Below are positions 3,947-46,931 of a DNA stretch of 64,000 nt, in pieces. The DNA is taken from NCBI RefSeq assembly GCF_055900595.2, contig NZ_CM148325.1. One strand, 5' to 3'. Within the stretch, counting starts at the first letter, position 1. Each line of letters begins with the position of its first letter. The notes beneath the pieces were generated by a model. The model searched no databases. It saw only the letters and a program-made list of their open reading frames with translations, and was not told where the DNA came from. A program made the position numbers and the translations under genes.

Positions 3947-4708
3947 ATGATTTTAAGTGCATTTTCTCTCGAAGGTAAAGTTGCGGTCGTCACTGGTTGT
4001 GATACTGGACTGGGTCAGGGGATGGCGTTGGGGCTGGCGCAAGCGGGCTGTGACATTGTTGGCATTAACATCGTTGAACCGACTGAAACCGTCAAGCAGG
4101 TCACGGCGCTGGGGCGTCGTTTTTTAAGCCTGACCGCCGATCTGCGAAAGATTGATGGTATTCCTGGACTGCTGGATCGCGCGGTAGCTGAGTTTGGTCA
4201 TATTGATATCCTGGTGAATAACGCCGGATTGATTCGGCGCGAAGATGCTCTCGAGTTCAGCGAAAAAGACTGGGACGATGTCATGAACCTGAATATCAAG
4301 AGCGTATTCTTCATGTCTCAGGCAGCGGCGAAACACTTTATCGCACAAGGCAATGGCGGCAAGATTATCAATATCGCGTCAATGCTCTCCTTCCAGGGCG
4401 GGATCCGTGTGCCTTCTTATACCGCATCAAAAAGCGGCGTGATGGGCGTGACGCGATTGATGGCGAATGAATGGGCTAAACACAACATTAATGTTAATGC
4501 GATAGCTCCGGGTTACATGGCGACCAACAATACTCAACAACTACGGGCAGATGAACAACGTAGCGCGGAAATTCTCGACCGCATTCCAGCTGGCCGTTGG
4601 GGACTGCCGAGTGACCTGATGGGGCCGGTAGTGTTTCTTGCCTCCAGTGCTTCAGATTATGTGAATGGTTATACCATTGCCGTGGATGGCGGTTGGCTGG
4701 CTCGTTAA
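3947..4708 (+). CDS. kduD: 2-dehydro-3-deoxy-D-gluconate 5-dehydrogenase (SDR family)
   Basis: 253 aa; short-chain dehydrogenase with N-terminal TGCDTGLG Rossmann motif and YTASK catalytic motif; adjacent to kduI. Confidence 0.93.
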   Translation: MILSAFSLEGKVAVVTGCDTGLGQGMALGLAQAGCDIVGINIVEPTETVKQVTALGRRFLSLTADLRKIDGIPGLLDRAVAEFGHIDILVNNAGLIRREDALEFSEKDWDDVMNLNIKSVFFMSQAAAKHFIAQGNGGKIINIASMLSFQGGIRVPSYTASKSGVMGVTRLMANEWAKHNINVNAIAPGYMATNNTQQLRADEQRSAEILDRIPAGRWGLPSDLMGPVVFLASSASDYVNGYTIAVDGGWLAR

Positions 4709-4730
4709 TCCATTCTTCTTACTTTTATGA

Positions 4731-23870: not shown

Positions 23871-24665
23871 ATGAAACAGTATTTAGAACTGATGCAAAAA
23901 GTGCTCGACGAAGGCACACAGAAAAACGACCGTACCGGAACCGGAACGCTTTCCATTTTTGGTCATCAGATGCGTTTTAACCTGCAGGATGGATTCCCGC
24001 TGGTGACAACCAAACGTTGTCACCTGCGTTCCATCATCCACGAACTGCTGTGGTTCCTGCAGGGCGACACTAACATTGCTTATCTACACGAAAACAATGT
24101 CACCATCTGGGACGAATGGGCCGATGAAAACGGCGACCTCGGGCCAGTGTATGGTAAACAGTGGCGCGCCTGGCCAACGCCGGATGGTCGTCATATTGAC
24201 CAGATCACTACGGTACTGAACCAGCTGAAAAACGACCCGGATTCGCGCCGCATTATTGTTTCAGCGTGGAACGTAGGCGAACTGGATAAAATGGCGCTGG
24301 CACCGTGCCATGCATTCTTCCAGTTCTATGTGGCAGACGGCAAACTCTCTTGCCAGCTTTATCAGCGCTCCTGTGACGTCTTCCTCGGCCTGCCGTTCAA
24401 CATTGCCAGCTACGCGTTACTGGTGCATATGATGGCGCAGCAGTGCGATCTGGAAGTGGGTGATTTTGTCTGGACCGGTGGCGACACGCATCTGTACAGC
24501 AACCATATGGATCAAACTCATCTGCAATTAAGCCGCGAACCGCGTCCGCTGCCGAAGTTGATTATCAAACGTAAACCCGAATCCATCTTCGACTACCGTT
24601 TCGAAGACTTTGAGATTGAAGGCTACGATCCACATCCGGGCATTAAAGCGCCGGTGGCTATCTAA
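23871..24665 (+). CDS. thyA: Thymidylate synthase
   Basis: 264 aa; canonical ThyA sequence with active-site Cys in [13 protein letters not shown]. Confidence 0.97.
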
Positions 24666-24686
24666 TTACGAAACATCCTGCCAGAG

Positions 24687-24714
24687 CCGACGCCAGTGTG
24701 CGTCGGTTTTTTTT
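24687..24714 (+). terminator. Rho-independent terminator after thyA
   Basis: Stem ccgacgc/gcgtcgg with 6-nt loop followed by a run of eight T. Confidence 0.7.
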
Positions 24715-24849
24715 ACCCTCCGTTAAATTCTTCGAGACGCCTTCCCGAAATTTTGCAACCTCCTGCAACGGCGTAAATAGTCCGGAAGATGCGCCGAAGA
24801 AATAGAAACTGGCCCTCGTCTTTTTTTCTCCTCGCTCCATACTGCCGGC

Positions 24850-25320
24850 ATGAAAACACAACATGGTTATACGCTGATTGAAACGCTGGTCGCGATGCTG
24901 ATTCTGGTCATGCTAAGCGCAAGTGGACTCTATGGCTGGCAATACTGGCAGCAGTCGCAACGGCTATGGCAAACCGCCAGCCAGGCGCGGGACTATTTGC
25001 TCTATTTACGTGAAGATGCCAACTGGCATAACCGCGACCACAGTATCAGCGTTATCAGGGAGGGGGCGTTATGGTGCCTTGTGAGTTCCGCGGCTGGGGC
25101 CAATACCTGTCATGGCAGTTCACCATTGGTCTTTGTGCCACGCTGGCCCGAAGTCGAAATGAGCGACCTGACACCTTCGCTTGCTTTCTTTGGCCTGCGC
25201 AATACCGCATGGGCCGGGCATATTCGCTTTAAAAACTCAACGGGCGAGTGGTGGCTGGTGGTTTCGCCGTGGGGAAGACTCCGGCTTTGTCAGCAAGGAG
25301 AAACAGAAGCATGCCTGTAA
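24850..25320 (+). CDS. ppdA: Prepilin peptidase-dependent protein A (type IV pilin-like)
   Basis: 156 aa; N-terminal [14 protein letters not shown] prepilin-type leader and hydrophobic segment. Confidence 0.88.
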
Positions 25321-25874
25321 AAGAGCTAGGTTTTTCTCTGCTGGAAGTGTTGATTGCTATGGCGATCAGTAGCGTATTGTTGCTGGGGGCAGCACGCTTT
25401 CTGCCTGCGTTACAGCGTGAAAGTTTAACGAGCACCCGTAAGCTGGCGCTGGAAGATGAAATCTGGCTGCGGGTATTTACCGTCGCGAAGCATCTCCAGA
25501 GGGCGGGTTATTGTCATGGCAGCTGTACCGGCGAAGGGCTGGAAATTGTCGGACAGGGGGACTGTATCATTGTGCAGTGGGATGCGAACAGTAACGGTAT
25601 CTGGGATCGCGAACCGGTAAAAGAGTCCGACCAGATTGCATTTCGTCTGAAGGAGCATGTGCTGGAAACGCTACGCGGTGCGACATCCTGTGAAGGTAAG
25701 GGCTGGGATAAAGTCACTAATCCGGATGCCATCATTATCGACACTTTTCAGGTTACCCGACAGGATGTCAGCGGTTTCTCGCCGGTGTTGACGGTTAATA
25801 TGCATGCTGCCAGCAAGGCTGATCCACAAACTGTGGTGGATGCCAGCTATAGCGTGACAGGATTCAACCTGTGA
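25311..25874 (+). CDS. ppdB: Prepilin peptidase-dependent protein B
   Basis: 187 aa from ATG at 25311 ([18 protein letters not shown]...), aggag RBS; overlaps the ppdA stop; the track ORF is a 21-codon upstream extension. Confidence 0.85.
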
Positions 25875-26278
25875 ACCGCGAAAAGGGTGTTTCGTCACTG
25901 GCTCTGGTCCTTATGCTGCTGGTTTTGGGTAGCTTGCTATTGCAAGGAATGAGTCAGCAGGATCGCAGTTTTGCCTCTCGCGTGAGCATGGAAAGTCAGT
26001 CATTGCGCCGCCAGGCCATCGTTCAGTCGACGCTGGAGTGGGGAAAAATGCACGCCTGGCAGACGCAGCCCGCAGTTCAGTGCTTACTGTACGCTGCCAC
26101 CGGTGCCCGGGTTTGTCTGCGTTTATTGGCAGATAATGAAGCCTTATTGATTGCCGGTTATGAAGGCGTTTCGTTGTGGCGAACAGGCGAAGTCATCGAT
26201 GGAAACATTGTTTTTTCGCCACGCGGCTGGAGCGATTTTTGTCCGCTGAAAGAGAGGGCGTTATGTCAGCTTCCCTGA
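25871..26278 (+). CDS. ygdB: Pilus-assembly-like protein YgdB
   Basis: 135 aa; GTG start overlapping the ppdB stop; N-terminal hydrophobic segment. Confidence 0.8.
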
Positions 26279-26586
26279 AGAATCAACAAGGCTTTAGCCT
26301 GCCGGAGGTGATGTTGGCGATGGTGCTGATGGTGATGATTGTCACTGCGTTATCGGGTTTCCAGCGAACATTAATGAACAGTCTTGCCAGCAGAAACCAG
26401 TACCAACAGCTCTGGCGGCATGGCTGGCAGCAAACGCAACTGCGTGCGATTTCGCCACCTGCCAACTGGCAGGTCAACCGAATGCAGACATCGCAGGCGG
26501 GATGTGTCAGCATCAGCGTTACGCTAGTTTCACCCGGGGGCAGAGAAGGCGAGATGACCCGCCTGCATTGCCCGAATCGTCAGTAG
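26263..26586 (+). CDS. ppdC: Prepilin peptidase-dependent protein C
   Basis: 107 aa from ATG at 26263 ([21 protein letters not shown]...), prepilin-type N-terminus; overlaps the ygdB stop. Confidence 0.85.
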
Positions 26587-26598
26587 TCAGGAGCCGCT

Positions 26599-29500
26599 AT
26601 GTTAAGGGTCTACCATTCCAATCGTCTGGACGTGCTGGAAGCGTTGATGGAGTTTATTGTCGAACGCGAACGGCTGGACGATCCTTTCGAACCAGAGATG
26701 ATTCTGGTGCAAAGTACCGGTATGGCGCAGTGGCTGCAAATGACCCTGTCGCAAAAGTTTGGTATTGCGGCAAACATTGATTTTCCGCTGCCAGCGAGCT
26801 TTATCTGGGATATGTTCGTCCGGGTGTTACCGGAGATCCCCAAAGAGAGCGCCTTTAACAAACAGAGCATGAGCTGGAAACTGATGACTCTGCTGCCGCA
26901 ACTGTTGGAGCGCGAAGACTTTACCCTGTTGCGGCATTATCTGACTGACGATAGCGACAAGCGAAAACTGTTCCAGCTTTCCTCTAAAGCGGCGGACCTG
27001 TTTGACCAGTATCTGGTCTATCGCCCGGACTGGCTGGCACAGTGGGAAGCCGGGAATCTGGTAGAAGGACTTGGAGAGGCGCAGGCCTGGCAAGCGCCGT
27101 TGTGGAAGGCGCTGGTGGAATATACCCATCAACTCGGGCAACCGCGCTGGCACCGCGCCAATCTCTATCAGCGCTTTATCGAAACGCTGGAGTCCGCGAC
27201 GACCTGCCCGCCGGGGTTACCTTCGCGCGTCTTTATATGCGGTATTTCCGCGTTACCGCCTGTTTATCTCCAGGCGCTACAGGCGCTGGGTAAACATATT
27301 GAAATCCATCTCCTGTTTACCAACCCCTGCCGTTATTACTGGGGCGACGTTAAAGATCCTGCTTATCTGGCGAAACTGCTGACTCGCCAGCGCCGACACA
27401 GTTTTGAAGATCGCGAATTACCGCTATTTCGCGACAGCGAAAATGCCGGGCAGCTCTTTAACAGCGATGGTGAACAGGATGTCGGCAACCCGCTGCTGGC
27501 CTCATGGGGCAAGCTTGGGCGCGACTACATTTATCTCCTTTCTGATCTGGAGAGCAGCCAGGAGCTGGACGCTTTTGTCGATGTGACGCCAGATAACCTG
27601 CTGCATAACATTCAGTCTGACATTCTGGAACTGGAGAACCGCGCCGTTGCGGGTGTGAACATCGAAGAGTTTTCCCGTAGCGATAACAAACGCCCTCTTG
27701 ATCCACTGGATAGCAGTATCACCTTCCACGTTTGCCATAGCCCGCAGCGTGAAGTTGAAGTTTTACACGATCGCTTGCTGGCGATGCTGGAGGAAGACCC
27801 GACACTTACTCCGCGCGACATCATCGTGATGGTGGCCGACATCGACAGCTACAGTCCGTTTATTCAGGCTGTGTTTGGTAGCGCACCTGCGGATCGTTAC
27901 CTGCCTTACGCCATTTCCGACCGTCGAGCGCGGCAGTCGCATCCGGTACTTGAAGCGTTTATCAGCCTGTTATCGTTGCCAGACAGCCGATTTGTGTCGG
28001 AAGACGTGCTGGCATTACTGGATGTGCCGGTGCTGGCGGCGCGGTTTGACATCACCGAAGAAGGGCTGCGTTATTTACGTCAGTGGGTCAACGAGTCCGG
28101 AATTCGTTGGGGGATAGATGACGATAACGTTCGCGAGCTGGAACTCCCCGCCACAGGTCAACACACCTGGCGGTTTGGCCTGACGCGCATGTTGCTGGGC
28201 TACGCGATGGAAAGCGCGCAGGGCGAGTGGCAATCGGTTCTGCCTTATGATGAATCGAGCGGCTTAATTGCAGAACTGGTGGGGCATCTGGCTTCACTGC
28301 TAATGCAGCTAAACATCTGGCGTCGCGGGCTGGCGCAGGAGCGTCCGCTGGAAGAGTGGTTGCCGGTTTGTCGCGATATGCTCAACGCCTTCTTCCTGCC
28401 GGATGCGGAAACCGAAGCGGCGATGACGCTGATCGAACAACAATGGCAGGCGATTATCGCCGAAGGTTTAGGTGCGCAGTATGGCGACGCGGTGCCGTTG
28501 TCACTATTGCGTGATGAACTGGCACAACGTCTGGATCAGGAACGTATCAGCCAGCGTTTTCTCGCCGGGCCGGTTAACATTTGTACTCTGATGCCAATGC
28601 GTTCCATCCCATTCAGAGTGGTTTGCCTGCTGGGAATGAACGACGGCGTTTACCCACGCCAGCTTGCGCCATTGGGCTTTGACCTGATGAGTCAGAAACC
28701 GAAGCGTGGCGACCGTAGCCGTCGCGATGATGACCGCTATCTGTTCCTGGAAGCGTTAATTTCCGCGCAGCAAAAACTCTATATCAGCTATATCGGGCGT
28801 TCCATTCAGGATAACAGTGAACGTTTCCCGTCGGTGCTGGTGCAGGAACTGATCGACTACATCGGGCAAAGCCATTATCTACCGGGCGATGAAGCGCTCA
28901 ATTGTGATGAAAGCGAGGCGAGGGTAAAAGCGCATCTTACTTGCCTCCATACCCGGATGCCGTTTGATCCACAAAACTATCAGCCAGGTGAACGACAAAG
29001 CTATGCACGTGAGTGGTTACCTGCGGCAAGCCAGGCTGGTAAGGCACATTCTGAATTTGTTCAGCCGCTGCCGTTTACCTTGCCGGAAACCGTGCCGCTG
29101 GAGACGCTACAACGATTCTGGGCGCATCCGGTGCGGGCGTTTTTCCAGATGCGCTTGCAGGTGAACTTCCGTACCGAAGATAGCGAAATTCCCGACACCG
29201 AACCTTTTATTCTTGAAGGGCTTAGTCGTTATCAAATCAACCAGCAGTTATTGAATGCTCTGGTCGAGCAAGATGATGCCGATCGCTTATTCCGCCGCTT
29301 CCGGGCGGCAGGGGATTTACCGTATGGCGCTTTTGGTGAAATTTTCTGGGAAACACAGTGTCAGGAGATGCAGCAGCTTGCCGACAGAGTCATTGCCTGT
29401 CGCCAACCGGGGCAAAGTATGGAAATTGATCTCGCCTGCAACGGTGTGCAAATAACGGGTTGGTTGCCGCAGGTGCAGCCGGATGGCCTGTTACGCTGGC

Positions 29501-29967
29501 GTCCCTCTTTATTAAGTGTGGCGCAGGGAATGCAACTTTGGCTGGAACACCTTGTCTACTGTGCCAGCGGTGGTAATGGTGAAAGTCGCCTTTTTCTACG
29601 CAAAGACGGCGAGTGGCGTTTTCCGCCGCTTGCAGCCGAACAGGCTTTACATTACCTCTCAGAACTGATTGAGGGGTATCGTGAAGGGATGTCCACGCCG
29701 CTGCTGGTGTTACCTGAAAGTGGCGGCGCGTGGCTAAAAACCTGTTATGACGCGCAAAACGATGCCATGCTGGATGACGATTCCACGTTGCAGAAAGCCC
29801 GTACGAAATTCCTTCAGGCTTACGAAGGCAACATGATGGTGCGTGGAGAAGGTGATGATATCTGGTATCAACGGCTCTGGCGGCAATTAACACCAGAGAC
29901 AATGGAAGCCATCGTTGAACAGTCGCAACGTTTCCTGTTACCGCTGTTTCGCTTTAATCAGTCATGA
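26599..29967 (+). CDS. recC: Exodeoxyribonuclease V gamma subunit
   Basis: 1122 aa; RecC sequence; first gene of the recC-ptrA-recB-recD cluster. Confidence 0.96.
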   Translation: MLRVYHSNRLDVLEALMEFIVERERLDDPFEPEMILVQSTGMAQWLQMTLSQKFGIAANIDFPLPASFIWDMFVRVLPEIPKESAFNKQSMSWKLMTLLPQLLEREDFTLLRHYLTDDSDKRKLFQLSSKAADLFDQYLVYRPDWLAQWEAGNLVEGLGEAQAWQAPLWKALVEYTHQLGQPRWHRANLYQRFIETLESATTCPPGLPSRVFICGISALPPVYLQALQALGKHIEIHLLFTNPCRYYWGDVKDPAYLAKLLTRQRRHSFEDRELPLFRDSENAGQLFNSDGEQDVGNPLLASWGKLGRDYIYLLSDLESSQELDAFVDVTPDNLLHNIQSDILELENRAVAGVNIEEFSRSDNKRPLDPLDSSITFHVCHSPQREVEVLHDRLLAMLEEDPTLTPRDIIVMVADIDSYSPFIQAVFGSAPADRYLPYAISDRRARQSHPVLEAFISLLSLPDSRFVSEDVLALLDVPVLAARFDITEEGLRYLRQWVNESGIRWGIDDDNVRELELPATGQHTWRFGLTRMLLGYAMESAQGEWQSVLPYDESSGLIAELVGHLASLLMQLNIWRRGLAQERPLEEWLPVCRDMLNAFFLPDAETEAAMTLIEQQWQAIIAEGLGAQYGDAVPLSLLRDELAQRLDQERISQRFLAGPVNICTLMPMRSIPFRVVCLLGMNDGVYPRQLAPLGFDLMSQKPKRGDRSRRDDDRYLFLEALISAQQKLYISYIGRSIQDNSERFPSVLVQELIDYIGQSHYLPGDEALNCDESEARVKAHLTCLHTRMPFDPQNYQPGERQSYAREWLPAASQAGKAHSEFVQPLPFTLPETVPLETLQRFWAHPVRAFFQMRLQVNFRTEDSEIPDTEPFILEGLSRYQINQQLLNALVEQDDADRLFRRFRAAGDLPYGAFGEIFWETQCQEMQQLADRVIACRQPGQSMEIDLACNGVQITGWLPQVQPDGLLRWRPSLLSVAQGMQLWLEHLVYCASGGNGESRLFLRKDGEWRFPPLAAEQALHYLSELIEGYREGMSTPLLVLPESGGAWLKTCYDAQNDAMLDDDSTLQKARTKFLQAYEGNMMVRGEGDDIWYQRLWRQLTPETMEAIVEQSQRFLLPLFRFNQS

Positions 29968-30142
29968 GTGCTGTATAAAAATTGCGCAATTCATCTGCTT
30001 ACTTTATGATGCGCACCAGTCACGGACTGATGGTTATATAGACATAGGCTGACTCGTGCAGCACAAGATTAAATTCTGCCGGATAATTTTCGTTAACGTA
30101 TTGAATCTGGACAGAAAATAAAGTTGATAATGAGGTCCGTGA

Positions 30143-33031
30143 ATGCCCCGCAGCACCTGGTTCAAAGCATTATTGTTGTTTGTTGCCCTTTGGGCACCCT
30201 TAAGTCAGGCAGAAACGGGATGGCAGCCGATTCAGGAAACCATCCGTAAAAGTGGTAAAGATAACCGCCAGTATCAGGCTATACGTCTGGATAACGGTAT
30301 GGTGGTTTTGCTGGTTTCTGACCCGCAGGCGGTTAAATCGCTCTCGGCGCTGGTGGTGCCCGTTGGGTCGCTGGAAGATCCCGAGGCGTACCAGGGGCTG
30401 GCACATTACCTTGAACATATGAGTCTGATGGGTTCGAAAAAGTACCCGCAGGCTGACAGTCTGGCTGAATACCTCAAAATGCACGGCGGCAGCCACAATG
30501 CCAGCACGGCACCGTATCGCACGGCTTTCTATCTGGAAGTTGAGAACGACGCCTTACCCGGTGCGGTAGACCGCCTGGCCGATGCTATTGCTGAACCCTT
30601 GCTCGACAAGAAATACGCCGAACGTGAGCGTAATGCGGTGAACGCTGAATTAACCATGGCGCGTACGCGTGATGGGATGCGCATGGCACAGGTCAGCGCA
30701 GAAACCATTAACCCGGCACACCCAGGTTCAAAGTTTTCTGGTGGTAACCTCGAAACTTTAAGCGATAAACCCGGCAATCCGGTACAGCAGGCGCTGAAAG
30801 ATTTCCACGAGAAATATTACTCTGCCAATCTGATGAAGGCGGTTATATACAGCAATAAACCGTTGTCGGAGTTGGCAAAAATGGCGGCGGACACTTTTGG
30901 TCGCGTGCCGAACAAAGAGAGCAAAAAACCGGAAATCACCGTGCCGGTAGTCACCGACGCGCAAAAGGGCATTATCATTCATTACGTCCCGGCGCTGCCG
31001 CGTAAAGTTCTGCGCGTTGAGTTTCGCATCGATAACAATTCAGCGAAGTTCCGTAGTAAAACGGATGAATTGATTACCTATCTGATTGGTAATCGCAGCC
31101 CAGGTACACTTTCTGACTGGCTGCAAAAGCAGGGATTAGTTGAGGGCATTAGCGCCAATTCCGATCCTATCGTCAACGGCAACAGCGGCGTATTAGCGAT
31201 CTCTGCGTCTTTAACCGATAAAGGTCTGGCGAATCGCGATCAGGTTGTGGCGGCCATTTTTAGCTACCTCAATCTGTTACGCGAAAAAGGGATTGATAAA
31301 CAATACTTCGATGAACTGGCGAATGTGCTGGATATCGACTTTCGTTATCCGTCAATCACCCGTGATATGGATTACGTTGAATGGCTGGCAGATACCATGA
31401 TTCGCGTTCCTGTTGAGCATACGCTGGATGCAGTCAATATTGCCGATCGGTACGATGCTAAAGCAGTAAAAGAACGCCTGGCGATGATGACGCCGCAGAA
31501 TGCGCGTATCTGGTATATCAGCCCGAAAGAGCCGCACAACAAAACGGCTTACTTTGTCGATGCGCCGTATCAGGTAGATAAAATTAGCGCACAAACTTTC
31601 GCCGACTGGCAGAAAAAAGCCGCCGACATTGTGCTCTCTTTGCCAGAGCTTAACCCTTATATTCCTGACGATTTCTCGCTGATTAAGTCAGAGAAGAAAT
31701 ACGACCATCCAGAGCTGATTGTTGATGAGTCGAATCTGCGCGTGGTGTATGCGCCAAGCCGTTATTTTGCCAGCGAACCCAAAGCTGATGTTAGCCTGAT
31801 TTTGCGTAACCCGAAAGCCATGGACAGCGCCCGCAATCAGGTGATGTTTGCGCTCAATGATTATCTTGCCGGACTGGCGCTTGATCAGTTAAGCAACCAG
31901 GCGTCGGTTGGTGGCATAAGTTTTTCCACCAATGCTAACAACGGCCTTATGGTTAATGCCAATGGTTACACCCAGCGCCTGCCGCAGCTGTTCCAGGCTC
32001 TGCTGGAGGGCTACTTTAGCTATACCGCTACGGAAGATCAGCTTGAGCAGGCGAAGTCCTGGTATAACCAGATGATGGATTCCGCAGAAAAGGGCAAAGC
32101 GTTCGAGCAGGCGATTATGCCCGCGCAGATGCTCTCGCAAGTGCCGTACTTCTCGCGAGATGAACGGCGCAAAATTTTGCCTTCAATCACTTTGAAAGAG
32201 GTGCTGGCCTATCGCGACGCCTTAAAATCAGGGGCTCGACCAGAGTTTATGGTTATTGGCAACATGACCGAAGACCAGGCAACAACGCTGGCACGCGATG
32301 TGCAAAAACAGTTGGGCGCTGATGGTTCGGAGTGGTGTCGTAACAAAGATGTCGTGGTCGATAAAAAACAATCCGTCATCTTTGAAAAAGCCGGTAACAG
32401 CACCGACTCCGCACTGGCAGCGGTATTTGTACCGACTGGCTACGATGAATACACCAGCTCAGCCTATAGCTCTCTGCTGGGGCAGATCGTACAGCCGTGG
32501 TTCTACAATCAGTTGCGTACCGAAGAACAGTTGGGCTATGCCGTGTTTGCGTTTCCAATGAGCGTGGGACGTCAGTGGGGCATGGGCTTCCTGTTGCAAA
32601 GCAATGATAAACAGCCTTCATTCTTGTGGGAGCGTTACAAGGCGTTTTTCCCAACCGCAGAGGCAAAATTGCGGACGATGAAGCCAGAAGAGTTTGCGCA
32701 AATCCAGCAGGCGGTAATAACCCAGATGCTGCAGGCACCGCAAACGCTCGGCGAAGAAGCATCGAAGTTAAGTAAAGATTTCGATCGCGGCAATATGCGC
32801 TTCGATTCGCGTGATAAAATCGTGGCCCAGATAAAACTGCTGACGCCGCAAAAACTTGCTGATTTCTTCCATCAGGCGGTGGTCGAGCCGCAAGGCATGG
32901 CTATTCTGTCGCAGATTTCCGGCAGCCAGAACGGGAAAGCCGAATATGTGCATCCTGAAGGTTGGAAAGTGTGGGAGAACGTCAGCGCGTTACAGCAAAC
33001 AATGCCCCTGATGAGTGAAAAGAATGAGTGA
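30143..33031 (+). CDS. ptrA: Protease III (pitrilysin, M16 family)
   Basis: 962 aa; signal peptide; inverted zinc-binding HYLEH motif. Confidence 0.96.
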   Translation: MPRSTWFKALLLFVALWAPLSQAETGWQPIQETIRKSGKDNRQYQAIRLDNGMVVLLVSDPQAVKSLSALVVPVGSLEDPEAYQGLAHYLEHMSLMGSKKYPQADSLAEYLKMHGGSHNASTAPYRTAFYLEVENDALPGAVDRLADAIAEPLLDKKYAERERNAVNAELTMARTRDGMRMAQVSAETINPAHPGSKFSGGNLETLSDKPGNPVQQALKDFHEKYYSANLMKAVIYSNKPLSELAKMAADTFGRVPNKESKKPEITVPVVTDAQKGIIIHYVPALPRKVLRVEFRIDNNSAKFRSKTDELITYLIGNRSPGTLSDWLQKQGLVEGISANSDPIVNGNSGVLAISASLTDKGLANRDQVVAAIFSYLNLLREKGIDKQYFDELANVLDIDFRYPSITRDMDYVEWLADTMIRVPVEHTLDAVNIADRYDAKAVKERLAMMTPQNARIWYISPKEPHNKTAYFVDAPYQVDKISAQTFADWQKKAADIVLSLPELNPYIPDDFSLIKSEKKYDHPELIVDESNLRVVYAPSRYFASEPKADVSLILRNPKAMDSARNQVMFALNDYLAGLALDQLSNQASVGGISFSTNANNGLMVNANGYTQRLPQLFQALLEGYFSYTATEDQLEQAKSWYNQMMDSAEKGKAFEQAIMPAQMLSQVPYFSRDERRKILPSITLKEVLAYRDALKSGARPEFMVIGNMTEDQATTLARDVQKQLGADGSEWCRNKDVVVDKKQSVIFEKAGNSTDSALAAVFVPTGYDEYTSSAYSSLLGQIVQPWFYNQLRTEEQLGYAVFAFPMSVGRQWGMGFLLQSNDKQPSFLWERYKAFFPTAEAKLRTMKPEEFAQIQQAVITQMLQAPQTLGEEASKLSKDFDRGNMRFDSRDKIVAQIKLLTPQKLADFFHQAVVEPQGMAILSQISGSQNGKAEYVHPEGWKVWENVSALQQTMPLMSEKNE

Positions 33032-41691: not shown

Positions 41692-41702
41692 GGAGCTATG
41701 GA

Positions 41703-42527
41703 ATGATCATCGAAAAAGTCATGAACAATAATTGTGTACAGGCATCGATGAATGGACAGGAGGTTATCATTTCTGGGCCTGGCGTCGGTTACAACAAAAA
41801 ATATGGAATGTCGGTCCCTGAGCATCCGGCTAACCGGATTTTTTATGTCAGAAATGAACAAAAAAATAAACTCTACAAATTGATTGAACATGTGGATATT
41901 GAGTATGTTTTTGTTGCCGAAAAAATAGTGCAATATGCGGAGAACAATCTCGAAAAAAATCTCAATCCATCGCTACTATTGATTCTTGCTGATCATATTT
42001 CGAATGCAATATCCCGAGTCGCTTCAGGCATACAAATTAATAATGTTTTCCTTGATGAAATCAAAGCGTTGTACAAAGCAGAGTATGCGATAAGTCGCGA
42101 TGCATTAACTATCATTAATGAGCAATTCAGCGTTCAACTTCCTGATGATGAGATTGGTTTTATAGCATTGCATATTTTAAATAATTATGAAAATTCAGTT
42201 GATTATGAATCAGTACGGATTATTGAGTTGTCGCAAATAATCACGGGGCTTATTGAAGTTGTTTATAACAGAAAGGTGGACAGAAGTTCATTTAATTATT
42301 CCAGGTTCATGATACACCTTAAATATTTTTCAAGTCGCGTATTATGCAATGAAAAAATAAAACAGAAAGATATTGGTGATCTCTATGAACAGTTTCTTGA
42401 GAAAGACATTCTGTTACAGCGCGCAATTCATGAAATTGAAAGGTATTTGTACGCCACTTTTAAATATGAATTGATTTTGGAAGAAAAACTATATCTCTCT
42501 ATTCGCACCAAAGTATTAATGGACTGA
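41703..42527 (+). CDS. BglG/LicT/SacY-family transcriptional antiterminator (CAT domain plus two PRDs)
   Basis: 274 aa from ATG at 41703 (MIIEKVMNNNCVQASMNGQEVIISGPGVGYNKK = CAT RNA-binding domain); conserved His in PRD-like segments (IGFIALHILNN, RFMIHLKYFSS); ggag RBS 7 nt upstream. The track start at 41646 lies inside the terminator hairpin. Confidence 0.8.
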   Translation: MIIEKVMNNNCVQASMNGQEVIISGPGVGYNKKYGMSVPEHPANRIFYVRNEQKNKLYKLIEHVDIEYVFVAEKIVQYAENNLEKNLNPSLLLILADHISNAISRVASGIQINNVFLDEIKALYKAEYAISRDALTIINEQFSVQLPDDEIGFIALHILNNYENSVDYESVRIIELSQIITGLIEVVYNRKVDRSSFNYSRFMIHLKYFSSRVLCNEKIKQKDIGDLYEQFLEKDILLQRAIHEIERYLYATFKYELILEEKLYLSIRTKVLMD

Positions 42528-42558
42528 TTATATATAACATTTATATGAGATAACCCGC

Positions 42559-44139
42559 ATGAAACAAAAGAAAGCCTGGAGTTTTTTTCAGAGCCTGGGA
42601 AAGGCATTTATGTATCCCATCGCTCTGCTAAGTGTATGTGGCATGATGTTAGGGCTAGGAAGTGGTTTAGCCAGCGATGATATGGCAAAATTAATTCCAC
42701 TACTGGCTATTCCCGTAATTAAAACCATTCTTGATTTTATTGTTAGCCTTGGTTTGTTTGCCTTTGTCAATTTACCTGTATTGTTTGCGATAGCTATACC
42801 TCTGGGGTTATTAAAAGAGAAAGAGGATAAAGCCTATGGCGCTTTTTCTGGCTTAATTGGTTTCATGGCGATGCATCTGGGAACGAACTTTTATCTTAAA
42901 CAACATGACTTATTGGTCGCTGCTGATCAAATGTCGACACATGGGCAAACCATTATTCTGGGAATCCAGTCCTACAATACCAGTGTGTTGGGTGGGATTA
43001 TAGCAGGATTATTAGTCGCCAGTATGTATAAAAAGATCGTTAACTTACGTATTCCTGAATCATTAGGATTTTATAGTGGCCCACGCCTGGTGCCTATTAT
43101 TACACTGATTGTGATGAGCGGATTTGGTCTGATCATCCCTTTTATCTGGCCGCCATTTTTCAATCTTTTCATGCTCATTGGCCACTGGATTTCAACTTCC
43201 GGTCCTGTTGGCTATTTTTTCTATGCAGTCGCCGAACGCGTGACGATACCTTTTGGTTTAAATCACCTGGTGACGTCAGTTTTCCGCTTTACCCCCATCG
43301 GCGGATCGGCAGTGATCGGCGGAGAAGAGTATTATGGCACCCTGAACATGTTTATGGCGTACGTCAAAGAGAATGCGGTCATTCCGCTGGATTTGGCGGG
43401 GAAAATGGAACAGGGCAAACTGATGATTCAGTATGGTCTGGCTGGTGCCGCGCTGGCGATGTATCGCACTGCTCATGCTCAAAACAGAAAAGCTATCAAA
43501 GCATTGCTTATTTCCGGGGTGCTTACAGTCATTATTGGCGGCGTCAGCGAACCGATTGAGTTTCTGTTCTTATTTGTCAGTCCACTGCTATTTGTCTTCC
43601 ATGCTTTTATGAATGGATTCGCCAACATGGTCTTGCCATATATGGGCGTGAAGATGGGATTTACTGGCGATCTGATTCAATTTATTAGCTTTGGCGTATT
43701 GCGTGGCACAAGAACAGGTTGGCCAATAGCGGTGTGTGTCGAAGTGGCCTATTTCTTTATTTATTACTTTGTGTTCCGTTGGACTATTCTCAAATTTAAC
43801 CTGATGACGGTAGGCCGTGAAGAGTCCAGTCCTGTCACGCTGAACGCTCATGAGGATACGGCTATAGCGGATATCCCACCGCTTGATAAATCAGAGCTGC
43901 AAGCAGCGGAGCAGATGGTTAAGGCACTTGGTGGTAAAGAGAATATTAAATCCCTGGATAATTGCGTAACTCGTTTACGTTTAACAATCGCAGATATGGG
44001 ATTGATTGACGAGGCAGCAATAAAAAGAGCTGGCGGAATTGCGGTTGTTAAACTTGATCAAAATACCCTACAAGTCATTATCGGTACTAAAGTCATCGCC
44101 TTGCGTCGGGATATGGATAACTACATGGGGATATGCTGA
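42559..44139 (+). CDS. PTS glucose-family EIICB permease (no EIIA domain)
   Basis: 526 aa; about 10 TM segments (EIIC) then a C-terminal EIIB domain with phosphorylatable Cys in NCVTRLRLTIADMGL...AVVKLDQNTLQVIIGTK. Confidence 0.85.
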   Translation: MKQKKAWSFFQSLGKAFMYPIALLSVCGMMLGLGSGLASDDMAKLIPLLAIPVIKTILDFIVSLGLFAFVNLPVLFAIAIPLGLLKEKEDKAYGAFSGLIGFMAMHLGTNFYLKQHDLLVAADQMSTHGQTIILGIQSYNTSVLGGIIAGLLVASMYKKIVNLRIPESLGFYSGPRLVPIITLIVMSGFGLIIPFIWPPFFNLFMLIGHWISTSGPVGYFFYAVAERVTIPFGLNHLVTSVFRFTPIGGSAVIGGEEYYGTLNMFMAYVKENAVIPLDLAGKMEQGKLMIQYGLAGAALAMYRTAHAQNRKAIKALLISGVLTVIIGGVSEPIEFLFLFVSPLLFVFHAFMNGFANMVLPYMGVKMGFTGDLIQFISFGVLRGTRTGWPIAVCVEVAYFFIYYFVFRWTILKFNLMTVGREESSPVTLNAHEDTAIADIPPLDKSELQAAEQMVKALGGKENIKSLDNCVTRLRLTIADMGLIDEAAIKRAGGIAVVKLDQNTLQVIIGTKVIALRRDMDNYMGIC

Positions 44140-45314
44140 TGGATGTTTTTAATACTCCTATTTCCCGCAAAGGAACATATTGTACCCAATGGGACTTTTG
44201 CGAGGACAGATTTGGTGTAAAAGATGTATTACCATTCTCTATTTCAGATATGGATCTTCCGATACCGGAAGCTATCATCAGGGCATTAAAAAAACGTCTG
44301 GAACACCCGATTTTAGGGTACAGCCGTTGGCAGCATGATGACTATCTGAATGCGATAGTCAATTGGTATCATCAACAATATAAAACTGAAATCAAACCAG
44401 AATGGATCACCTATAGCCCAAGCGTGATGTACTCCATTGCTAAAGCAATAGAGTTATTGACATCGCATGGTGATAATATTCTCGTTTTTACACCTGTCTA
44501 TAATGCATTTTTTGATATAATTAAACATAGTGAGAGAAATATTCTGACAGCCTCTTTGATTATAAAAAATGAGGGGGGCTACGCTATCAATTGGCAAGAT
44601 TTTGATCTTAAGATTCAAAGCGCAAAGATGGTGTTATTATGTAATCCTCATAACCCGACAGGAACCGTCTGGTCGGAAGAAGATCTGCATAAAATCGCTG
44701 CAAGCTGTGCAAGACATAATGTCTGGTTATGTTCAGATGAAATTCACAGTGATTTTGTTTTTAATCGTAGCTTTACATCTGCGCTTAAAATAAAAAAAGA
44801 AAAAGTAGTGGTGTTTAATTCGATATCGAAGACATTTAATGTTCCCGCGCTAACAGGATCGTATATGATTTCAACTGACGATAATTTTAATCATAAGTTC
44901 AGAACGATATCAAGATATCGCGATTTTGTAAACTCCCCATCCGTACTGAATATAATTGCAACTATTATTGCCTATAACGAATGTGAGGGATGGTTAAAGT
45001 CATTAAAGGCACATATTGCCTCTAACATTCAATTCACCCAGCAGTATCTGAACGAAAATACTCCAGAATTGATCGTAAGGCCAGCTGATGGTTGCTATTT
45101 TTCGTGGATAGATTGCTCTGCTATTGGTTATCCATTTGATGAATTCTACAGTCGATTAATTCATGAAGGCAAAGTGGGCATTATGGCGGGGAATGTCTAT
45201 GGAACGGAGGGGGAGGGCTACCTTCGTCTGAACCTGGCCTGCGGTCGAGAAAAATTATATATGGGGCTTACGCGTCTTGCGAGTGTAATTAAAAATATTA
45301 ATCAAGGAAAATAA
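44133..45314 (+). CDS. PLP-dependent aminotransferase class I/II, MalY/PatB-like C-S lyase
   Basis: 393 aa; NPHNPTG motif and Schiff-base Lys in NSISKTFN; start overlaps the PTS gene stop (ATGCTGATGGA). Confidence 0.8.
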   Translation: MLMDVFNTPISRKGTYCTQWDFCEDRFGVKDVLPFSISDMDLPIPEAIIRALKKRLEHPILGYSRWQHDDYLNAIVNWYHQQYKTEIKPEWITYSPSVMYSIAKAIELLTSHGDNILVFTPVYNAFFDIIKHSERNILTASLIIKNEGGYAINWQDFDLKIQSAKMVLLCNPHNPTGTVWSEEDLHKIAASCARHNVWLCSDEIHSDFVFNRSFTSALKIKKEKVVVFNSISKTFNVPALTGSYMISTDDNFNHKFRTISRYRDFVNSPSVLNIIATIIAYNECEGWLKSLKAHIASNIQFTQQYLNENTPELIVRPADGCYFSWIDCSAIGYPFDEFYSRLIHEGKVGIMAGNVYGTEGEGYLRLNLACGREKLYMGLTRLASVIKNINQGK

Positions 45315-45316
45315 AA

Positions 45317-45913
45317 ATGAACAGCACGGATCTTATCCATCTCATTAAACATTTTATGCGTAACGAACATAAAGCAGTTGAAGAAGTTATTGATTCCCCC
45401 CTTTCGGAGGTTGCAAATTTAATTAAAGTATTACAGTCTTGTCAGGGGAAAGTTGTTTTTATTGGTGTCGGTAAGTCCGGTATTATTGCCCGAAAACTCG
45501 CCGCAACATTTGCCAGCACTGGAACTCCCTCGTTTTTTGTTCACGGTACTGAAGCCGTACACGGCGATCTTGGGATGGTGGCGAAAGATGATGTTGTTAT
45601 TCTTATTTCAAACAGTGGTGAGACGACAGAAATCCTGGCAACACTACCTAGTCTGAAAAAAATGGGTAATTATTTGATCTCCTTTACCCGCAGTCATCGC
45701 TCATCGCTTGCGATAAGTTGTGATTTATCCGTTGAAATTCCCGTAAAAAGTGAGGCGGATAATTTAGGTTTAGCGCCGTCATGCTCATCAACAGTCGTTC
45801 TGGTTGTTGGTGATGCGGTGGCGCTTGCGCTCTCCGAATTGAAAAAGTTTACTCGTGCTGATTTCGGCTTATATCATCCAGGAGGTGCGCTCGGTATTAA
45901 AGCAAACTCATAA
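45317..45913 (+). CDS. SIS-domain sugar-phosphate isomerase (KdsD/GutQ-like catalytic domain without CBS domains)
   Basis: 198 aa; VVFIGVGKSGIIARKLAATFASTGTPSFFVHGTEAVHGDLGMV...ISNSGET...HPGGALG closely resembles the SIS core of arabinose-5-phosphate isomerases; no C-terminal CBS pair. Confidence 0.8.
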   Translation: MNSTDLIHLIKHFMRNEHKAVEEVIDSPLSEVANLIKVLQSCQGKVVFIGVGKSGIIARKLAATFASTGTPSFFVHGTEAVHGDLGMVAKDDVVILISNSGETTEILATLPSLKKMGNYLISFTRSHRSSLAISCDLSVEIPVKSEADNLGLAPSCSSTVVLVVGDAVALALSELKKFTRADFGLYHPGGALGIKANS

Positions 45914-45983
45914 TTTTAGAATATAAAACAGTAACCGGTCACGCCATCTTTTGGGGTGGCGTTCATTGATGTGAGTGTCAGCT

Positions 45984-46931
45984 ATGAAAAACGTTCTGGT
46001 CACCGTTCCCAGCTTTTCAGCGCGTTGTGTTTCTGCCAGCAAGCTGCTAAGAGAAAATCATTTTAACCTTATTATCAAGAATAATGTGGAGCATCTGGTT
46101 AAATCAGAATCCACAGTATTACGAGAATCTATTTGCGCAGTCATTGCCGGAAAAGATTGTTATCAAGCGGATACGTTATCGCGACTACCAGGAGTGAAAA
46201 TAATATCGAGATTCGGGACAGGGATTGATAATATTGATCTTCATACGGCTCGACAATCAGGTATTGTGGTCAATAATGCTGTTGGGATTAATTCAAATGC
46301 AGTCGCGGAATTTATCATTGGTCTTATTTTTGCGAGCATGAGAAATATCCCCGGTAGCTATCATGCGATGCAAAATGGTTATTGGGGCGAGTCGCATGGC
46401 TGCGAGTTACAAGGTAAACGTATTGGCCTGCTTGGCTACGGCAATATTGGCAAAACACTGGCGAAAAGGTTATCTGGTTTTGATGTTGAGCTTTTAGCTT
46501 TTGACAAACAACCCGATTTCCAGGCCGCAGGCAAAGATGGAGTTCAGTTCGTATCAATTGAAGATATCTTTATGCAGTCTCATGTCATCATCGTTCTTTT
46601 GCCATTTTCTCCTGAGCTGGAGAACTTCATTAGTCATAAATATTTGTCGATGATGCGCAATGGTGCTCTTATCATCAACGCCGCAAGGGGAAAGTTGCTG
46701 GATGAGGGGGCTTTACTTCAGGTAATTGAAGAACGAAATGTTTTTGCAGCACTGGATGTGTTTAGCTCTGAACCGCTAGCGCAATTTAGCCCATTGCTAC
46801 ATGCCAGGAATATCATTACAACGCCGCATATTGCGGCCGCCACCGTTGAGTCATACCAGCAAACCGGGATATACGTTGCCAGGTCGATAATAGATTTCTT
46901 TGCAGGAAGGGAGATAAAAAACGTGCTGTGA
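45984..46931 (+). CDS. D-isomer-specific 2-hydroxyacid dehydrogenase family, NAD(P)-binding
   Basis: 315 aa from ATG at 45984 (MKNVLVTVPSF...; the track ORF starts 3 codons earlier at GTG); GLLGYGNIGKTLAKRL nucleotide-binding motif; catalytic-region motifs NAARGKLLDE and TPHIAAAT. Confidence 0.8.
   Translation: MKNVLVTVPSFSARCVSASKLLRENHFNLIIKNNVEHLVKSESTVLRESICAVIAGKDCYQADTLSRLPGVKIISRFGTGIDNIDLHTARQSGIVVNNAVGINSNAVAEFIIGLIFASMRNIPGSYHAMQNGYWGESHGCELQGKRIGLLGYGNIGKTLAKRLSGFDVELLAFDKQPDFQAAGKDGVQFVSIEDIFMQSHVIIVLLPFSPELENFISHKYLSMMRNGALIINAARGKLLDEGALLQVIEERNVFAALDVFSSEPLAQFSPLLHARNIITTPHIAAATVESYQQTGIYVARSIIDFFAGREIKNVL

Follow-up and report, generated by a model that had tools for sequence, protein, structure and literature searches.

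The ppdA-ppdB-ygdB-ppdC minor-pilin operon of Escherichia coli: a tightly packed four-gene module with a looser link to recC

Positions 24850-26586 of the window (the whole 64,000-nucleotide stretch of contig NZ_CM148325.1, assembly GCF_055900595.2, that was analysed) very probably correspond to the well-known core-genome ppdA-ppdB-ygdB-ppdC operon of E. coli, which encodes the four core minor pilins of the cryptic PpdD pilus, a type IVa pilus of the competence type. The cluster, its minor-pilin role, its regulation by Sxy and its position beside recC are already present in the literature and in standard annotation. A first-pass annotation had proposed the gene names and the minor-pilin interpretation from the letters of the sequence, and both are borne out by RefSeq coordinates, NCBIfam equivalogs and Pfam. 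The region is 100% identical to the E. coli chromosome NZ_CP098223.1, where the RefSeq annotation maps to exactly the same coordinates, and of 5426 complete E. coli genomes, 5425 contain the stretch. Each of the four proteins clears by a wide margin the cutoff of its NCBIfam equivalog (NF007800, NF007848, NF008569 and NF007660): PpdA reaches 248.8 bits against NF007800 (cutoff 158), PpdB 324 bits against NF007848 (cutoff 120) and PpdC 217.3 bits against NF007660 (cutoff 86). PpdC also matches PF12528 (T2SSppdC, E 8.6e-31), and recC orthologues carry Pfam RecC_N/RecC_C. The equivalog-level match of each protein, together with a position flanked by thyA and recC, identifies the ppdAB-ygdB-ppdC operon.

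The K-12 counterpart (b2826-b2823, upstream of recC, b2822) has identical gene lengths (156, 187, 135 and 107 aa) and identical flanks, with lgt-thyA upstream and recC-ptrA-recB-recD downstream. In K-12 (BW25113) the overlaps between the genes and the gap to recC are the same to the nucleotide. Nucleotide identity is about 97.6%, the PpdC protein is identical (WP_001276460.1), and the differences are allelic changes only (6, 19, 20 and 3 nt in ppdA, ppdB, ygdB and ppdC, respectively).

All genes of the cluster lie on the + strand. The cluster opens with ppdA (24850-25320, ATG to TAA, 156 aa), a minor pilin predicted to be GspH/FimU-like and orthologous to ComN, followed by ppdB (25311-25874, ATG to TGA, 187 aa), predicted to encode a GspJ/PilW-like minor pilin. 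Next come ygdB (25871-26278, GTG to TGA, 135 aa), encoding a DUF2509 protein and putative pilin-fold minor pilin, and ppdC (26263-26586, ATG to TAG, 107 aa), whose product is predicted to be a GspI/PilV-like minor pilin. The next gene 3' of ppdC is recC (26599-29967, + strand, ATG, 1122 aa), which encodes the exodeoxyribonuclease V gamma subunit and is defined by both its open reading frame and RefSeq. Direct reading of the sequence places a 10-nt overlap between ppdA and ppdB (ATGCCTGTAA), a 4-nt overlap between ppdB and ygdB (GTGA, within which the ygdB GTG start sits) and a 16-nt overlap between ygdB and ppdC (ATGTCAGCTTCCCTGA). The ppdC-recC spacer (26587-26598, + strand) is 12 nt long (TCAGGAGCCGCT) and holds the recC ribosome-binding site, with the Shine-Dalgarno sequence AGGAG. 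The junction lengths claimed earlier, 10, 4 and 16 nt of overlap and 12 nt to recC, were thus exact to the base.

The earlier proposal that the true starts of ppdB and ppdC lie inside longer open reading frames also holds, as Shine-Dalgarno sequences, leader length and conserved geometry agree. The longest ppdB frame begins at a GTG at 25248 and would encode 208 aa, exceeding the real 187-aa gene; the longest ppdC frame begins at a GTG at 26176 and would encode 136 aa, exceeding the real 107-aa gene. The internal ATG of ppdB has a Shine-Dalgarno-like AAGGAG 9 nt 5' of it, that of ppdC is preceded by a Shine-Dalgarno-like GAGAGGG, and both give a short leader of 6-9 residues ahead of the cleavage Gly. 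The same start and overlap geometry is kept in Citrobacter rodentium and Siccibacter. Overlaps between coding sequences are generally common (7 of 28 same-strand adjacent pairs counted by hand in the annotation table for 50 kb), so three in series are the mark of a tight operon rather than an oddity.

The operon is set apart from thyA by an intrinsic terminator of lgt-thyA (24683-24714, + strand). Its stem, CCGACGC/GCGTCGG, extends to 11 pairs and is followed by U8; the fold has a predicted energy of -16.6 kcal/mol (z -3.5, with 0 of 200 shuffles as good), and C. rodentium retains both stem and T-run. A consensus scan for promoters and terminators overlooked this genuine terminator; it listed no promoter on the + strand, and its terminator hits were weak hairpins within coding sequence at chance frequency (7 versus 5.6 expected). 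A relaxed sigma-70 scan (at least 8 of 12 matches) returned one site 5' of ppdA, TTGCAA-17-AATAGT, plus two weak ones within genes. Between the terminator and ppdA lies a conserved block, GAAATTTTGCAACCnnCTGCAACGnnnTAAAT (24746-24779, + strand), that combines a candidate degenerate CRP-S half-site with a -10-like TAAATA. The block is common to E. coli and C. rodentium, and by our own reading has partial matches upstream in Siccibacter and Erwinia. Within it, TTTTGCAACCT (24751-24761) agrees at 9 of 11 positions with the published CRP-S half-site T1T2T3T4G5C6G7A8T9C10T11 (PMC1635313), while the second half-site is poor. With up to two mismatches allowed, neither the CRP-S core TGCGA-N6-TCGCA nor the CRP-N core occurs in the thyA-ppdA spacer (24666-24849). 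The homologous Orbaceae locus has a better CRP-S-type site, TTTGCGTATTGGCTAGCAAA, 72 nt before ppdA (0.11 expected per locus). The literature describes the ppd operon as under Sxy control and as the counterpart of the comNOPQ operon upstream of recC, and its genes as unexpressed in laboratory culture (PMC12616744; PMC1635313). Induction by Sxy and cAMP-CRP has been reported (Sinha 2009; Jaskolska & Gerdes 2015; both as cited in PMC12616744).

The first-pass annotation had assigned prepilin-type N-termini to all four proteins, which is correct for three of them but not for YgdB. The leaders of all four are short and charged and end in Gly-1, and this cleavage Gly is conserved across all loci compared. 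PpdA (MKTQHG/YTLIE, where the slash marks the cleavage site), PpdB (MPVKELG/FSLLE) and PpdC (FSLPE after the cleavage site) have canonical prepilin-peptidase sites with Gly-1, Phe or Tyr at +1 and Glu+5, and score above the cutoffs of Pfam N_methyl and TIGR02532. The motif G/(F/Y/I)xxxE is retained in six distant loci. By these N-terminal features, PpdA, PpdB and PpdC are predicted to be classical prepilin-peptidase substrates.

The motif of YgdB (MNREKG/VSSLA) is degenerate: the Gly is kept, while Phe+1 and Glu+5 are missing, and neither N_methyl nor TIGR02532 matches at E <= 0.1. Among 51 YgdB homologues, Gly-1 is present in at least 90%, and Glu is absent from position +5 in every displayed row of the alignment. 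The high-confidence structural model of YgdB nevertheless has a pilin fold, with a long N-terminal alpha-helix on an antiparallel beta-sheet, and its top matches among solved structures are minor (pseudo)pilins, e.g., GspI and GspK. Judged from this model, YgdB is a pilin-fold protein and a Glu+5 exception of the GspK/PilX type, not a canonical prepilin. An ordinary homologue search gave only close relatives from Escherichia and Citrobacter, and distant members needed an exhaustive search of representatives, by which the YgdB/DUF2509 family comprises 109 clusters whose named members all belong to Enterobacterales or Orbaceae.

The protein-by-protein correspondence to GspH, GspJ, GspK and GspI is weak, as it draws on low sequence or structure scores. 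PpdA has a weak GspH match (E 0.0069), and a weak Pfam GspH match is also recorded for PpdA of a distant relative (locus L012). PpdB has a weak N-terminal match to GspJ (E 6.9e-4), and its profile aligns with the Thermus pilin TTHA1219 over 118 residues (E 0.0027). Apart from this PpdB-TTHA1219 match, sequence and profile searches of the PDB with PpdA, PpdB and PpdC returned the shared N-terminal helix alone, as seen in the matches of the PpdA and PpdC profiles to solved pilins.

A parallel outside E. coli is comNOPQ of Haemophilus influenzae (HI0938-HI0941), which likewise groups four small genes for pilin-like proteins into a single operon and shares the position and orientation of the ppd operon relative to recC. 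To our knowledge, E. coli is not naturally transformable via a ppd/comNOPQ-type route. The H. influenzae operon is Sxy/CRP-dependent, is needed for DNA uptake and has been treated as orthologous to the ppd operon (PMC1635313; PMC12616744), although the similarity between the encoded proteins is too low for BLAST (PMC1635313). FimU-PilV-PilW-PilX of Pseudomonas aeruginosa and PilH-I-J-K of Neisseria meningitidis also comprise four co-encoded small pilin-fold proteins, one without Glu+5, and these core minor pilins are required for the start of pilus assembly. However, the H-J-K-I-like gene order found here appears to differ from that of these type IVa sets, the ppd cluster has no adjoining PilY1-type adhesin and no PilE-like gene, and its proteins are smaller than type IVa minor pilins.

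Resemblance to type II secretion systems (T2SS) raises the question of whether the four genes encode spare pseudopilins rather than minor pilins of a type IV pilus. The full name of PF12528, 'Type II secretion prepilin peptidase dependent protein C', points to T2SS, GspI and GspK from T2SS are among the best structural matches of YgdB, and ppd proteins are able to prime the T2SS pseudopilin PulG (PMC5131608). The structural matches cannot separate T2SS from type IV pilus minor subunits, because the fold is common to both. Unlike GspH-GspI-GspJ-GspK, the ppd genes lie outside any gsp operon, without flanking T2SS genes, and are regulated with competence and type IV pilus genes. YgdB, at 135 aa, is far shorter than GspK-type proteins (about 280-330 aa for GspK) and lacks the large alpha-domain insertion of GspK. 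The literature counts the cluster, like ppdD-hofBC and hofMNOPQ, among the members of the Sxy regulon (PMC12616744; PMC1635313) and uses its genes in a reconstituted type IV pilus system (bioRxiv 10.1101/856302), and a T2SS identity is very unlikely. More improbable still is that the cluster is a decaying, functionless remnant of cryptic genes with meaningless overlaps. Such a view would fit the reported lack of expression in laboratory culture and the rapid divergence of the genes, whose rate of evolution is several times that of the neighbouring genes (between E. coli and C. rodentium, protein identity is 64-72% for the four ppd proteins versus 88-95% for RecC and ThyA). However, none of the four frames is interrupted, either in the window or in K-12, and the region occurs in all but one of the complete genomes noted above. 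Furthermore, in those pairs that allowed an estimate, dN/dS for the ppd genes is 0.15-0.33 (0-0.06 for thyA and recC), well below 1, and the cleavage motifs, the Cys pairs and the overlap geometry are conserved as far as Orbaceae. The ppd genes are thus maintained, not decaying, and a minor-pilin operon remains the preferred reading.

How firmly this operon is joined to recC is a separate matter. In ten genomic-context look-ups, the four-gene module was tightly packed in every genus examined, with genes overlapping or within a few nucleotides of each other wherever starts could be checked; the exception is locus L011, with one 62-nt gap going by the starts of the gene caller. The module is less firmly joined to recC than its genes are to one another: the ppdC-recC gap is 12-17 nt in Escherichia, Citrobacter, Siccibacter and locus L009, widens to 77, ~85, 137 and 286 nt in Erwinia and three other relatives, and one Orbaceae genome has the module away from recC altogether. 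Given this widening and the unlinked Orbaceae case, coupling to recC is not essential to the module. In the window, the ppdC/recC junction contains no hairpin or terminator and its folding is no more stable than that of shuffled sequence (z +1.7), Rfam detects no RNA family in 24000-30500, and inside the cluster no terminator-like site was judged convincing and no sigma-70-like promoter was recognised. With neither a terminator, nor an RNA structure, nor a sigma-70-like promoter between the two genes, read-through from ppdC into recC is likely, and the sequence is in keeping with the co-transcription proposed in the first-pass annotation. The alternative is that recC is transcribed mainly from its own weak promoter or promoters within ygdB or ppdC, the pilin adjacency being inherited gene order and not a working five-gene operon. 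Cells produce RecC constitutively (~5 molecules per cell; PMC6536506), but the ppd promoter has been described as silent and dependent on Sxy, so recC cannot rely on a Sxy-activated promoter alone; the constant need for RecBCD means that some transcription of recC has to be independent of Sxy. The wider gaps in Erwinia and its three companions and the loss of linkage in Orbaceae point the same way. An embedded signal could also be reflected in ppdC synonymous sites, where 68% of codons at conserved residues are identical between E. coli and C. rodentium versus 46% in ppdA, ppdB and ygdB (p = 0.002), but six other species pairs show no significant excess, and this constraint was rejected as evidence for an internal promoter. 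In addition, no sigma-70-like site with at least 8 of 12 matches occurs in 26000-26598 or in ygdB or ppdC, the 12-17 nt gap is maintained in the four close cases, and ppdAB-ygdB-ppdC-recC is given as one operon in a study of transcriptome stability (PMC3936743). Moreover, an internal promoter would be compatible with read-through. Transcription of recC chiefly from its own promoter is therefore possible but doubtful.

With a minor-pilin operon that reads into recC as the preferred reading, the pathway may be outlined as follows. Transcription would begin in the thyA-ppdA spacer, 3' of the thyA terminator, at a promoter that according to the literature is ordinarily silent and is switched on by Sxy and cAMP-CRP. 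Through their start/stop overlaps, the four genes would be bound into a single transcript with probable translational coupling, which could help to balance subunit amounts. PpdA, PpdB and PpdC would be cleaved by prepilin peptidase, with YgdB as a fourth member that lacks Glu+5, comparable to GspK/PilX. Once cleavage has taken place, all four may form a tip or priming complex in the inner membrane that starts polymerisation of the major pilin, as proposed in the literature: PpdAB-YgdB-PpdC minor pilins are reported to prime fibre assembly (Cisneros 2012, as cited in PMC5131608), and the same four are the minor-pilin set of the reconstituted E. coli pilus system (bioRxiv 10.1101/856302). RNA polymerases that start at the ppdA promoter, and any that read through the thyA terminator, would most likely run on into recC. 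There is a small chance that placement in front of recC is itself functional, either because Sxy-driven read-through shifts RecC dosage, and hence RecBCD assembly or activity, during DNA uptake, or because ppdC contains recC control signals that would explain its conserved synonymous sites.

The value of these observations as a discovery is small, as the cluster is ordinary and already described. What they refine is the picture of the module itself: YgdB is a pilin-fold protein without Phe+1 or Glu+5, and the four genes stay together tightly in each genus examined, whereas their link to recC varies.

The four ppd genes and recC lie on the + strand in the order ppdA (24850-25320, ATG start, 156 aa), ppdB (25311-25874, ATG, 187 aa), ygdB (25871-26278, GTG, 135 aa), ppdC (26263-26586, ATG, 107 aa) and recC (26599-29967). 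Successive members of the cluster overlap by 10 nt (ATGCCTGTAA), 4 nt (GTGA) and 16 nt (ATGTCAGCTTCCCTGA), and the 12 nt between ppdC and recC (TCAGGAGCCGCT) hold the recC ribosome-binding site. Read directly, the window bears out every number in the first-pass annotation, which had described these coordinates, the overlaps and the distance to recC. The region is E. coli chromosomal DNA: the RefSeq annotation of an identical genome places the ppd genes at exactly the same coordinates, K-12 agrees in gene lengths and junctions, and 5425 of the 5426 complete E. coli genomes contain 80% or more of the stretch. The longest mechanical ORFs of ppdB (GTG 25248, 208 aa) and ppdC (GTG 26176, 136 aa) extend 5' of the annotated genes. 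It had also been claimed that the true starts are internal to these frames, and this is upheld by the internal ATGs, which have Shine-Dalgarno-like sequences at suitable spacing, yield leaders of 6-9 residues, as is typical of type IVa prepilins, and show a start geometry common to the window, Citrobacter rodentium and Siccibacter turicensis. Start/stop overlaps are frequent in E. coli operons (by hand count from the annotation table, a 50-kb stretch around the cluster has 28 pairs of neighbouring CDSs on the same strand, of which 7 overlap, including ptrA/recB and recB/recD), so the three consecutive overlaps are no oddity: they mark a tight operon, nothing stranger.

Several features lie nearby. 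On the 3' side of recC, a 175-nt gap (29968-30142) precedes ptrA-recB-recD (overlaps of 8 and 1 nt), so the RecBCD genes are split between a pilin-attached recC unit and a ptrA-recB-recD unit. A Chi site (GCTGGTGG, 25254-25261, + strand) lies within the 3' end of ppdA, ~1.3 kb 5' of recC, which encodes the Chi-recognising subunit. The window contains eight Chi sites, every one of them on the + strand, where 2.2 would be expected (none of 100 shuffles reached eight); since Chi excess and strand bias are usual genome-wide, this position is almost certainly a coincidence. At ~41700-46930 (3766743-3771971 in the annotated chromosome NZ_CP098223.1), five genes between amiC and three tRNA-Met genes (phosphoglycerate dehydrogenase, KpsF/GutQ-type isomerase, MalY/PatB-family protein, PTS EIIC and PRD-domain regulator), which K-12 is not known to carry at this position, resemble a small sugar-utilisation island located at a tRNA hotspot. 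Window ~1-870 (3812800-3813962 in the record) holds an IS3-family transposase pseudogene with a programmed frameshift and internal stop, adjacent to a hypothetical gene.

The cluster is well represented in the literature. According to PMC5131608, citing Cisneros 2012, PpdAB-YgdB-PpdC are the minor pilins of the E. coli type IV pilus and can prime the assembly of PulG, a Klebsiella pseudopilin, without PulHIJK. A plasmid that reconstitutes E. coli pilus assembly includes the same set as its minor pilins (bioRxiv 10.1101/856302). Four genes of similar size, labelled 'prepilin peptidase dependent', adjoin recC in both Enterobacteriaceae and Pasteurellaceae, as Cameron and Redfield (2006) pointed out; they treated these genes as orthologues of H. 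influenzae pulG-HI0941, now comNOPQ (PMC1635313). A 2025 paper repeats the orthology and places the E. coli operon under Sxy control, ppdA showing the strongest induction (PMC12616744), and a transcript-stability study lists ppdAB-ygdB-ppdC-recC as a single operon (PMC3936743). Given the published pilin role, Sxy regulation and operon listing, both the cluster and its interpretation were already in print; the ppd operon is a textbook, core-genome, annotated locus whose function, regulation and recC synteny are published.

All four proteins score far over their NCBIfam equivalog cutoffs. The view that all four have prepilin-type N-termini holds for PpdA, PpdB and PpdC, which have the canonical Pfam N_methyl/TIGR02532 motif (cleavage predicted from the motif at G↓YTLIE, G↓FSLLE and G↓FSLPE, respectively), and needs correction for YgdB, whose only family match is DUF2509 and whose N-terminus (MNREKG↓VSSLA) keeps the Gly without Phe+1 or Glu+5. 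When 1.84 billion representative proteins were searched exhaustively, only 109 YgdB-family clusters emerged (E <= 0.001), with named members in Enterobacterales and Orbaceae. Among 51 aligned full-length members, Gly6 is at least 90% conserved and Glu+5 is absent from every displayed row; three Cys and several Trp are invariant and a fourth Cys nearly so, a pattern that fits an exported, disulfide-bonded protein. The predicted YgdB structure matches the S. sanguinis minor pilin PilA (score 7.7), GspI (6.8), EpsI (6.6), GspK (6.4), XcpV (5.8) and XcpX (5.8). Judged from this model, YgdB is a predicted pilin-fold protein of the Glu+5-less type, like GspK and PilX, both of which lack that residue. 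Some public assemblies contain ORFs of 228-237 aa joining YgdB and PpdC (Pfam DUF2509, N_methyl and T2SSppdC; P0004, P0020, P0032, P0044), presumably through frameshifts within or close to the 16-nt overlap; as these are tiny clusters of 1-4 sequences, taken from Logan or ENA assemblies, they probably reflect errors of sequencing or assembly. The E. coli UTAK-10 record (NZ_CP168987.1), the lowest-ranked spread record (91% of the query covered, in two pieces), has partial lgt and thyA, a differently called ppdB start and a frameshifted recC, an accumulation of defects that suggests assembly error rather than biology.

The ppd genes have dN/dS values of 0.15-0.33 where estimable (window versus K-12 and E. 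coli versus C. rodentium; the exceptions are ppdC, with zero non-synonymous changes versus K-12, and ygdB, with synonymous sites saturated versus C. rodentium), compared with 0-0.06 for thyA and recC. Between E. coli and C. rodentium the four pilins share 64-72% protein identity, compared with 95% for ThyA and 88% for RecC. The ppd genes are under purifying selection and are not decaying; they evolve several-fold faster than their neighbours, as is usual for pilus subunits. At residues conserved between these species, identical codons make up 68% in ppdC (positions 4393-4713 of the C. rodentium locus) against 46% in ppdA, ppdB and ygdB together (Fisher p = 0.002), and 52% in recC; in six other species pairs the ppdC excess is small, in the same direction and not significant. 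This unexplained excess could hint at nucleotide-level recC signals within ppdC, a possible if unsupported reading; a promoter-like sequence was sought in ppdC and not found.

Upstream, thyA ends in a clear intrinsic terminator (24683-24714, + strand; 11-bp stem then U8; -16.6 kcal/mol, z -3.5) that is kept in C. rodentium; it was seen by folding and missed by a consensus terminator scan, whose negatives are weak evidence. The thyA-ppdA spacer contains a block kept between E. coli and C. rodentium (GAAATTTTGCAACCnnCTGCAACGnnnTAAAT, 24746-24779) and, as judged by eye, matched in part in Siccibacter and Erwinia. Its first part, TTTTGCAACCT, agrees at 9 of 11 positions with the published half-site of CRP-S, the Sxy-dependent CRP site; the second half-site is poor, and the spacer holds no core CRP-S match with two or fewer mismatches. 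The block may represent the ppdA promoter/CRP-S region. Orbaceae bacterium ac157xtp has a much better CRP-S-like site, TTTGCGTATTGGCTAGCAAA, 72 nt 5' of its ppdA (2893-2912; 0.11 expected per locus). Towards recC, the ppdC/recC junction shows no folding beyond that of its shuffles (z +1.7), ygdB and ppdC contain no sigma-70-like site with at least 8 of 12 matches, and the cluster region has no Rfam match. With a gap of 12 nt, read-through from ppdC would be the simplest expectation, and the proposed ppd-recC co-transcription is likely on these sequence grounds. Read-through alone cannot be the whole story, since RecC is constitutive at ~5 molecules per cell (PMC6536506) and the ppd promoter is reported silent without Sxy. 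Sxy-independent supply of recC must then come from leakage through the thyA terminator, basal ppdA promoter activity or an unrecognised internal promoter.

Gene context was compared at ten divergent YgdB homologue loci, with gene starts partly re-examined. The module junctions of the window (-10, -4, -16) recur in C. rodentium and S. turicensis, where ppdC lies 15 and 17 nt from recC, and the distance is again 12 nt at L009. It widens to 77 nt in Erwinia billingiae (junctions -4, -4, -23), ~85 nt at L010 (ppdC absent from the gene caller's calls), 137 nt at L011 (+62, +5, -13 from raw gene-caller starts) and 286 nt at L005 (-10, -4, -11). In Orbaceae bacterium ac157xtp (GCA_045014155.1, 31% G+C; junctions -7, -14, +1), ppdC is not adjacent to recC, and the module is flanked by a tRNA-synthetase/rmuC pair on one side and by a DEAD-box helicase gene, trxA and rho on the other. 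Loci L006 and L012 stop short of the expected recC position and are uninformative on the link. The module genes overlap or are at most a few nt apart, the raw 62-nt gap at L011 excepted, and the distance to recC varies; the four-gene module is thus the conserved unit, and its attachment to recC is old and common yet can be loosened.
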